A stretch of 64,000 nt of DNA, taken from the NCBI GenBank assembly GCA_050952645.1, contig JBMNLI010000012.1, forward strand, positions 96,001 to 160,000. Direction: 5' to 3'. The position numbers are program-made. Positions 1 to 3,000 of the stretch are shown here, in pieces; the first letter of the stretch is position 1; each line of letters starts with the position of its first letter. The stretch comes from Bdellovibrionota bacterium (lineage in GTDB: Bacteria; Bdellovibrionota_C; UBA2361; CAKMMH01).

Positions 1-3000
1 TGAAATATTATTTATCGATAATTACCAAGATGCTAAAAAATTAGCTAATGAAAGATTTAGGCATGATGTAGCGCATGCTCTATATGTCGCTATATTAAAA
101 TATTTTAACCAAAAATAGTGAAACTTTAAAAAAAATAAAAGATATGGACTATAAAGAGTGCAGAGATTTTTTTACTAGAGTTCTTCTTTTTGCTAAAAAA
201 GAGCGTGCTGAAATAAGTTTAGTCGGTGGATTTTTAAGAGATTTATTTATATTCGATGATTTTTATTCTAACGATATCGATTTTATAACTACTAGTAATG
301 TCGATAAGCTAGCTAAAAATTTTGCAGATGATTTTAAAGGGGAAGTTTTACTATTTAGCCAATTTTTAACTAGTAAGGTTAGAAATTTAAAAACTTTTAA
401 AAACGTTTATGAAGTAGACTTTGCAAGGTATAGAGAAGAAAGGTATTTAAAAAGTGGTGATTTTCCAAAAGTTAAAGCTGTTAGCGATATTAAGGAAGAT
501 TTAAAAAGAAGAGATTTTACTATAAATACATTAGTAATTCCTTTAGAAGATTTCATAAAAACTTTTGATGATAGCATAGAAAACATAGATCACATGCGTT
601 TAAGAAAGCATGTAAAAAATTATCTTTTTGCTCTAGAGGATATAGATAAAAAAATTATAAGAGTGCTACATAAAAAAAGTTTTCACGATGACCCTACTAG
701 GATTTTTCGTGCCTTTAGGTATAAGGCTAGAATTAGTGGCAGTTTCGATAAAGAAACTTTTAAACTTATTTTAGAAGCTCTTAGTAGTGGAGTACTTAAT
801 AATATATCAAAAAATAGAATTAAAAAAGAAATAGAAAAGATTAAAAAAGAGAGAGATTTTGAAAAGATTTTAAACGACCTAGAAGAGATAGGAATTAAAA
901 CCGATATAGAGTAAGCAAAAGATAAGAATAAATAAAAGTAATAGTTAGGTAATTTTAATAATGTTAAATATTAAAAACATTGAAGCAGAAATTTCTAAAA
1001 ATGCAAAAGAGTATTTTAATACTAATATAGAAGCAAAATTTAATCCGTCTCTAGATTTAAATTTAGGAGATTTTTATTCAGATTATTGTATAGTGCTAGC
1101 TAAAGAATATAAAAAAAGCGTAAGTGAAATTTATAAGATTATTTCTAAAGACTTGTCTTTAAAAGATTACGATATTTTGCTTATAGGCGATTATATAAAT
1201 ATTAAACTAAAAAAGTTTATTATAAATAGTTTTGATATAATAAAGCCTAATGTTAAAACTAATAATGTAGAAATTAAAAGCGTAGTAATTTTTATTCCGC
1301 TACTTAAAACTTATACTAAACCGTTATTTTATAGATTATCATTTTTAGGTTTTTTAAATAAAATTTTATTTGAAAAACTAGGTGTAAAAGTAGAGTTTTT
1401 CTTAGGAAGTAAGGACTATAAGGCAAACGATTTAGGAAGTGATACGCTAAGCTTTAGCAGGCTATTAGAGAAAGTTTACGACGATTTAGACGCTAGAAAA
1501 GATATTTTAGAAAAAATATATGACCTAGATAAATTATATAATATAGAACTATTTTTAATTCATATAGGGCCAAGCACTTTTTACCAAAGAAGTTTGCCAA
1601 AAGCACTTTTCAAAACTACTAAAGCACGCACTCATTTTGCTTTAAAATTTCACTCTAAAGATTGGGGGGAGGTTTACAAAGAAGATATAGATGAGATGGA
1701 AGATTTTATAAAGAGCTTAAATAAAAACCAAAATAAGAGCCAAAATAAAAACGAAAATAAAAACGAAAATATCACTGCGCTAAACGCTCTTATGTATATG
1801 TTATCTACAAATAAAGATTTTAAAGAGATAAATTATTATGATGCTACGATAAATACACAAGAAAATTTTATATATTTTTTAAACTCCACTTTAAATAGAA
1901 TAAATAAGTTTTTTAAAGGCGATGCGAGTAAAGAAAAGGATGTCTTATATGAGTTTAGCAAAGATGATAAGCTTAGGAATATAATGCTAAGAGGCTACAC
2001 ACTAAACAGTGTTTTGTGTGATACTGTAAGGCATGGAAGAGTAGGAGACTTTTTATCATACTTTGATGAGCTACTAAGGGATGTAAATTACGTGTTGAAT
2101 ACTCCATCTTTTAGAAGTAAATTAGTAAATGGAGAAATTTCAAGCAAGACGAGTTTCGTGTTTAATTATATTAAAGTAGTATTTCAAGATTTTTTAAGAT
2201 AGTGTAATATTTTTATTAGTGTTGTATTTTTTGTCTAAGTTATTTATTAAGTTATATTTAATATAAGCATTTATTTTGAAGCATTTATTTAGGAGCGCAA
2301 AGGAGATGATACCTTTTAAAGAGTATAGAATGAGCACACTTCAAGTAGTATGTCTAAGTGGAATAGTTATGGGATGTATGGTTTGTGCTTTTTATATAGG
2401 AACGTATTTCGGAAATAAGATAGGTTTCGAGAATGCTATGAAAGAGAATTTAGAAAACTTAGCAAAAGTTCCTATCGATTCTATCGATATCGGCAGCGAT
2501 GATACCGACGAAAAAATTTCTTTAGAAGTAGAAACGAAATTAAAACGAGATAGCTTAGCTAAGAATGAAGAGCCAACACTAGAAGATATCGTAAATAGCA
2601 AATCTCCTACAAAGAAAGAAAAAGAAGATGAAGCGATAGAAATACTTAATAAGAGATTGCTAGGAGATGTAGTTGGCGAGGATGGTAGCATTAGTCTAGT
2701 AGAAGATGTTAGCTTAGAAAAGAAGATAAAAAAGGAAGATGATAAAAACAATGAAATTATAGAAATTAGTAAAGAAGGTAATATCGATGATGTAAATGTT
2801 TTATCGGAAAAAGAAGAAGTCGAAAAAATAAGCAAATTAACTAATGTGGAATTTGAAAAAAATAAGCAAAAAAGCAAGGAAAAAGATAAAAATAAAGAAA
2901 AAGATGTAGCTAAAAGGAAAGATAAAAGGAAAGATAGAAAAGAGATAAAAGTAGATGTTAAAGAGGCTGTAGAGATTAAAAAAGAGATTAAAGAAGAGAT

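Follow-up and report, generated by a model that had tools for sequence, protein, structure and literature searches.

The stretch of DNA analysed here (the window) comprises 64,000 nucleotides (C12:96001-160000) of contig C12 of a Bdellovibrionota bacterium (assembly GCA_050952645.1). It opens with a cluster of forward-strand genes, in which a tRNA nucleotidyltransferase (NT) is followed by a relative of arginyl-tRNA synthetase (ArgRS), here called RX, and by a SPOR-domain protein (SPOR; Table 1). A mutS-like gene was found further upstream of the amidase-like gene in the ORF table of the contig; its name and the designation of the amidase-like gene as amiC-like are presumptive and follow sequence features. 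After the PP2C gene, positions 6016-9074 of the window held a DprA-like gene (PF02481), a weak FHA-like ORF, and a Ser/Thr-kinase-like gene, which, as read from the sequence, lies on the minus strand and carries a receiver-like tail. Two tandem PP2C-like genes were located behind SPOR in G036, G076, and G078 (loci L097, L101, and L243). Scans for promoters and terminators gave results at chance level.

Table 1. Genes and sequence features at the start of the window
Feature	Positions	Strand	Basis and remarks
Amidase-like gene, 3' end	1..118	+	ORF table of contig C12; gene order same in most relatives
NT, class II tRNA nucleotidyltransferase, A-adding type, 256 aa	144..914	+	PF01743, 59.5 bits
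RX, ArgRS-derived pseudo-synthetase, 413 aa	961..2202	+	Pfam, PDB profile, model, Foldseek, VIA, motif counts
Y78-I79-N80, RX equivalent of the ArgRS Tyr/Phe-x-Asn motif	1192..1200	+	Alignment with ArgRS GY/FIN
Former HIGH site, RX residues 113-125	1297..1335	+	Profile alignment to GPLH-type ArgRS
N380-x-P382-x-x-R385, RX anticodon (DALR-like) domain	2098..2115	+	Aligns with ArgRS 'FH.FY...R'
SPOR-domain membrane protein, FtsN/DedD-like, 518 aa	2276..3832	+	PF05036, 46.6 bits; start codon uncertain
PP2C-type phosphatase	3994..5826	+	Kept downstream cluster member in relatives

NT retains the motifs GG..RD, DxD (D44/D46), and RRD as well as a long head loop. Its best family match was the A-adding model NF041569 (90.8 bits over positions 484-688, i.e. 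205 of 880, with a cut-off of 1440), and its best PDB matches were 4wby and 1vfg (E 1e-24), which we take to be the Aquifex A-adding enzyme. We found NT in 120 of the 124 genomes of our phylum sample, which represent one class (91 in the order of the window and 33 in other orders). Both the long N-terminal extension and the C-terminal body/tail are missing from the NT of the window, in which 213 aa follow the first catalytic Asp, compared with medians of 318 aa in the order (n = 66), 271 aa in other orders (n = 26), and 379 aa in outgroups (n = 73). Four outgroup enzymes were also short (322-324 aa) and had no ArgRS-like neighbour. An earlier note on this DNA had described NT as a short, Aquifex-like enzyme of 256 aa, which holds for the window; lengths of 253-258 aa, however, occurred only in its family (four genomes, i.e. 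the window, L038, L050, and L055), most relatives having about 290-400 aa. The enzymes of this family end early in the body domain and are far shorter than any outgroup enzyme examined.

NT is one of three PF01743 genes in the genome. The second encodes an HD-bearing enzyme of 448 aa whose head loop is short, and the third a PcnB-like enzyme of 574 aa. A short head loop has been suggested, in a review, as a hallmark of CC-adding enzymes (PMC3925840). CCA is encoded in only 10 of the 38 tRNA genes of the genome, so that addition of A76 is needed. The best matches of NT and the short loop of the second enzyme suggest that NT adds A76 only.

Domains, motifs, and selection in RX

RX consists of an N-terminal domain, a reduced Rossmann core, and a helical anticodon domain. 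Residues 6-83 matched Pfam Arg_tRNA_synt_N (PF03485; 23.1 bits, cut-off 21.5), and a 34-sequence RX profile retrieved ArgRS only from the PDB (8/8 matches). With the AF2 model (pLDDT 89.7, pTM 0.90), Foldseek gave 19 matches at E<=0.001, and all 17 matches listed among ranks 1-19 were ArgRS (best TM 0.53). Likewise, ranks 1-15 in VIA were ArgRS (Z 17.3-14.9), the best alignment extending over 378 residues (Z 17.3, rmsd 6.1). The helical DALR anticodon domain was recognized from the structural alignment over residues 3-413 and by hhalign (probability 97, 121 columns); Pfam DALR_1 was weak in the family (7 of 70 members, best E 0.028). RX had previously been described as a 413-aa ArgRS relative devoid of HIGH and KMSKS motifs, for which PDB profile and Foldseek searches return ArgRS only, with the genuine ArgRS encoded elsewhere. 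All of this was borne out (for Foldseek, among the matches listed), the genuine enzyme being a 573-aa ArgRS (HVGH, MKTREG) on contig C11.

Neither a HIGH-like nor a KMSK-like motif was detected in any of 100 distinct RX sequences. The HIGH site reads KPLFYR in the RX of the window, and only the following Arg (R125) is kept (66/66); the stretch of the KMSK loop is deleted, as judged from a profile alignment to outgroup ArgRS. Since the canonical KMSK is missing from some genuine ArgRS (PMC3956977), its absence alone is a weak sign of lost catalysis. RX did not match the catalytic core PF00750, for which the ArgRS on C11 was the sole match in the genome, and it scored 12.4 bits against the NCBIfam ArgRS model NF002447 (cut-off 460). 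BLASTP of RX against the genome's own ArgRS gave a best E of 0.06, and a scan of named genome contigs with a single protein detected no relative. That RX is derived from ArgRS and non-catalytic is well supported.

RX is under purifying selection. Its median dN/dS in close pairs was 0.145, compared with 0.10 for NT (29 of 34 pairs usable, the other five being saturated; mostly genus g31). The most conserved motif of the family is N-x-P-x-x-R, with the Pro present in 62 of 66 members of the order and 23 of 23 members from other orders. A low-complexity insert rich in Asn, Lys, and Gln (NKNQNKSQNKNENKNEN; window positions 1717-1770) was missing from the other 33 aligned relatives. The region of ArgRS that matches N-x-P-x-x-R presumably contacts the anticodon; the C-terminal Met and the second Tyr of YxQY in ArgRS, which we also take to be anticodon contacts, are not conserved in RX.

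The N-terminal domain of ArgRS grips A20 of tRNA-Arg via a Tyr/Phe-x-Asn motif (PMC3956977, PMC8975779, PMC9976931). This motif is retained in the RX of the window (Y78, N80), and each of the four tRNA-Arg genes in the genome has A20. Outside genus g31, the Asn was found in 55 of 58 RX members (32/35 in the order and 23/23 in other orders) at an overall identity of 15-25%; in g31, it is replaced by Val or Ile in 31 of 31 members. The Asn could be structural. The retained motif points to tRNA-Arg as the predicted ligand of RX.

Distribution, gene order, and origin of RX

RX was detected in 107 of the 124 genomes, i.e. 78/91 in the order and 29/33 in other orders, and is thus not the order-specific family (63/124 genomes) that it had been taken for. 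The order profile matched 83 of the 91 order genomes; in five of these the match was the working ArgRS, leaving 78. In other orders, an ORF of 300-380 aa sits between NT and SPOR. We aligned 23 such ORFs picked by position, and their profile found 29 of the 33 non-order genomes, 23 of which had themselves contributed to it. Compared with the order RX profile, these ORFs gave a probability of 96.8; their profile matched ArgRS in the PDB, and Arg_tRNA_synt_N was detected at E<=0.5 in 11 of the 23. In the predicted model of the other-order form, the N-terminal domain and helices appear without Rossmann strands. Foldseek searches with this shorter model placed ArgRS at all of ranks 1-8, none at E<=0.001. 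RX is a real, unnamed, phylum-wide pseudo-enzyme derived from ArgRS.

With a 70-sequence profile, RX was absent from 12 genomes of six families (G009, G012, G013, G024, G079-G085, and G095). In these and five other genomes, that profile detected the working ArgRS only, plus one 43-aa fragment (E 0.03). The RX-less assemblies are 76-95% complete, which makes a moved copy possible in individual cases; G024 is a single contig. At L337 (G037:C227), in a 62%-complete assembly, the RX match extends over two frames, due to a frameshift or an assembly error. G025 has two NT-RX loci (L043, L017) at 9% contamination, probably a binning artefact.

NT lies directly before RX in 98 of the 107 RX genomes, and their stop and start codons often overlap by 1-4 nt. 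The two genes are apart in seven genomes (G035, G036, G076, G077, G078, G116, and G118), in five of which RX is near SPOR; in G018 and G071, contig ends leave the adjacency undecidable. In G102, G107, G109, G115, and G117, SPOR is not the next gene after NT-RX, and all 12 RX-less genomes have NT directly before SPOR. The earlier statement that RX always follows NT thus applies to the large majority of loci, but not to the seven separations, and 12 genomes kept NT without RX. In outgroups, none of 80 argS loci had NT within 5 kb, and no argS was found beside 78 NT loci, so that the NT-RX junction looks phylum-specific.

In contrast to this junction, the place before SPOR is shared with argS of other bacteria. 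SPOR directly follows an intact argS in five of 10 outgroup genomes (Myxococcota, Desulfobacterota-type, and Nitrospirota records) by HMM and in two more by eye, as well as at 31 of another 74 argS loci whose flanks were long enough; this outgroup set was drawn from one GPLH-type query and hence is no random sample. The locus order in Myxococcota is mutS, amidase, two further genes (presumably glnD- and xerD-like), and NT. Given these outgroup arrangements (argS-SPOR and mutS-amidase-...-NT), the cluster of the phylum looks merged from two old clusters, with RX at the place of argS.

A similar picture emerged from profile comparisons. An RX-only profile gave a median of 62.6 bits with outgroup ArgRS (n = 89) vs. 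21.1 bits with the working ArgRS of the phylum (n = 96). All 96 working ArgRS were of the K..HxGH type and none of the GPLH type (some genomes were counted twice). The hhalign probabilities of RX were 96.3, 97.0, and 95.6 for the GPLH type vs. 93.6, 91.3, and 55.9, respectively, for the working type, and the anticodon domain of RX matched well with GPLH-type ArgRS only. A tree was built from 81 rows and 212 columns, after removal of one RX outside the source alignment and of five ArgRS that lacked the anchor motif. It grouped RX with the GPLH type (support 76), but in the AU test the placement with the working type had p-AU 0.59 and a log-likelihood higher by 4.9, so that the tree leaves the origin of RX undecided. 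RX had been regarded as a paralog of ArgRS; the argS-SPOR position and the bit scores indicate that RX probably did not arise by copying of the working ArgRS. We infer, on fairly strong grounds, that RX descends from the native argS of deltaproteobacterial type.

Sequences of the commonest working ArgRS type from different orders fall into a single clade (support 99); several other types are present. Since these types are mixed within g31, repeated replacement is suggested. Working ArgRS frames were about 575, 600, 620-660, and 700-750 aa long, and G007, G015, G059, G079, and G081 each have two working ArgRS.

Possible functions of RX

The explanation that we consider best, and to which we attribute about even chances, is that RX is the original argS of the lineage, which was retired and kept as a dispensable, non-catalytic adaptor binding tRNA-Arg. 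It is based on the missing catalytic motifs, the ArgRS fold, the phylum-wide spread, purifying selection, repeated loss, and the place before SPOR. A different type of ArgRS would have taken over aminoacylation, and the native argS would have been retired. Judging from its retained motifs, RX may grip the D-loop (through the A20 pocket) and the anticodon stem of tRNA-Arg, and the acceptor end would then stay free for a partner. By analogy with DALRD3, which acts for METTL2, RX might present or protect tRNA-Arg for a processing or modifying enzyme.

A tRNA-Arg-modifying partner was not found among TtcA-like and TadA-like candidates. The single PF01171 match of the genome is probably TilS, and TtcA was rejected; so was TadA, as a TadA-like gene was present irrespective of RX (13 of 14 genomes without RX, 21 of 22 with it).

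RX had also been proposed, in the earlier note, to be the partner of NT. It would then serve the tail-less A-adding enzyme as an accessory subunit, acting as a tRNA clamp in trans that replaces the missing body/tail, a role that we regard as rather unlikely. The frequent adjacency and overlap of the two genes, unseen outside the phylum, would fit such a role, but the junction can also be the seam of the old mutS-amiC-...-NT and argS-SPOR clusters. In five genomes, NT-RX persists although SPOR is not the next gene; against this stand the 12 genomes of six families with NT before SPOR and no RX, and the seven in which RX is off NT, five of them with RX by SPOR. NT is shortened throughout the phylum (medians of 318 and 271 vs. 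379 aa after DxD), but RX-less genomes have an NT that is short as well (median 298.5 aa, n = 12) with its motifs intact, so that a short NT persists without RX, and no NT alignment column was convincingly tied to the presence of RX. NT is needed, in view of the few tRNA genes encoding CCA and of the CC-adding-like short loop of the second enzyme; yet RX-less genomes have a second enzyme of the same type, where found. A swap of the second enzyme in these genomes was rejected, as it was of the same type in 9 of 12; no CC-type enzyme was matched at E<=1e-15 in G024, G079, and G084. Finally, the putative geometry of RX, with a free acceptor end, would admit NT, but an A20-specific pocket would fit tRNA-Arg only and an A-adding enzyme serves all tRNAs.

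The link between RX and NT is thus not obligatory: the proposed partnership retains the tight, phylum-only junction and the short NT in its favour, and is opposed by the losses, the separations, the ancient argS-SPOR order, and the tRNA-Arg pocket. A complex prediction for the NT-RX pair of G026 (66-row alignments) gave no answer (score 0.00 vs. a mark of 0.32) and says nothing either way. It is also conceivable, although in our view unlikely, that a retired native ArgRS was recruited as the clamp, giving a two-subunit class II nucleotidyltransferase in which RX would be most needed where NT is shortest (253-258 aa, in the family of the window). If RX does serve the A-adding enzyme, it would add a new architecture to those known for tRNA 3'-end synthesis.

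Because RX has kept RNA-binding domains and lost catalysis, it might act as a regulator via a tRNA-like RNA (an mRNA leader or small RNA) or help a foreign working ArgRS to handle host tRNA-Arg. In its favour, several types of working ArgRS exist, even within one genus; however, the presence of RX does not follow the ArgRS type, since ArgRS frames of about 570, 620-660, and 700 aa occur both with and without RX, and no target element was noticed, although none was looked for. We consider this explanation improbable. It is highly improbable that RX has lost RNA binding and serves as a protein scaffold tied to the cell-division protein SPOR or the PP2C phosphatase. RX stays by SPOR in five of the seven genomes where it is off NT, but the argS-SPOR order is older than RX, NT-RX occurs without SPOR, and the N-termini of SPOR look alike by eye in RX-less genomes; RX is acidic (median pI 6.05 and 5.62), though so is ArgRS (5.69). 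That RX is a functionless relic decaying in the operon, as its very fast divergence (long tree branches) and repeated losses might suggest, is scarcely credible given intact frames in most of the 107 genomes, conserved motifs, a confident fold, and above all the dN/dS of 0.145, which largely refutes it.

The family provides natural controls, namely 12 clean deletions, seven separations, and the g31 genomes without the A20 Asn. What maintains a displaced synthetase gene is therefore directly testable.

Relation to known systems

A literature search for the RX family or NrtL, with most subscription journals outside its scope, found no paper. On the side of NT, the closest known system is the split CC-/A-adding system of Aquifex and Geobacter: NT is nearest to A-adding models and structures, and a second, short-loop HD enzyme is present in the genome. 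Most outgroup A-adding enzymes have an N-terminal extension of about 450 aa, whereas NT lacks the extension and part of the body/tail. To our knowledge, the A-adding enzymes known so far are single chains.

RX shares its fold, domain order, and place before SPOR with ArgRS of the GPLHxGH (deltaproteobacterial/proteobacterial) type, and 'DLD...N..WY....R' pairs with 'LDFDL...NPVFYVQYAHAR' between the two. RX is, however, 150-250 aa shorter, having lost HIGH, the KMSK region, and the C-terminal tail. HisZ and YadB are synthetase paralogs in which the catalytic domain has stayed and tRNA-binding parts have gone, the reverse of RX. Like RX, both are paralogs with other jobs (PMC7373986).

In the ESM Atlas, the nearest named clusters to RX were DALRD3 (on top at 0.91) and NrtL. 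For the shorter RX form of other orders, the Atlas gave unnamed clusters of 258 and 329 aa from Bacillota and Actinomycetota with Arg_tRNA_synt_N and DALR_1 only, i.e. further core-less ArgRS derivatives. These Atlas similarities (scores 0.90-0.91) count as one source of evidence. NrtL (NF045898, Actinomycetota) is, like RX, a bacterial ArgRS derivative with N-terminal and DALR domains but no working catalytic core. Positions 1-154 and 164-327 of its 327-position model cover the two ends of GPLH-type ArgRS and skip the catalytic middle, much as in the RX forms of other orders. In contrast, NrtL belongs to another phylum, the RX of the window's order retains a reduced Rossmann core, and RX scored far too low for the NrtL model (cut-off 340 bits), with 5 of 70 members matching at all and a best E of 0.018.

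DALRD3 of animals, like RX, is related to ArgRS, has a DALR domain, and is missing the catalytic motif. It is described as binding two tRNA-Arg isoacceptors, with its DALR domain on the anticodon stem, and as targeting METTL2 for m3C32 (PMC7237682). Unlike DALRD3, which is eukaryotic, RX retains a recognizable N-terminal domain of ArgRS, and the DALRD3 mark PF26758 (DALR_N) was found in none of 70 RX members. RX thus shares the build of DALRD3 and NrtL, the known proteins nearest to it, and by score is a member of neither. Among the ArgRS shells found here, DALRD3 is the one with a tested function. Reduction of ArgRS to a shell that binds tRNA seems to have happened on several occasions, i.e. 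in animals (DALRD3), in actinobacteria (NrtL), in the Bacillota of the Atlas clusters, and in the phylum of RX, which shows two stages of core loss.
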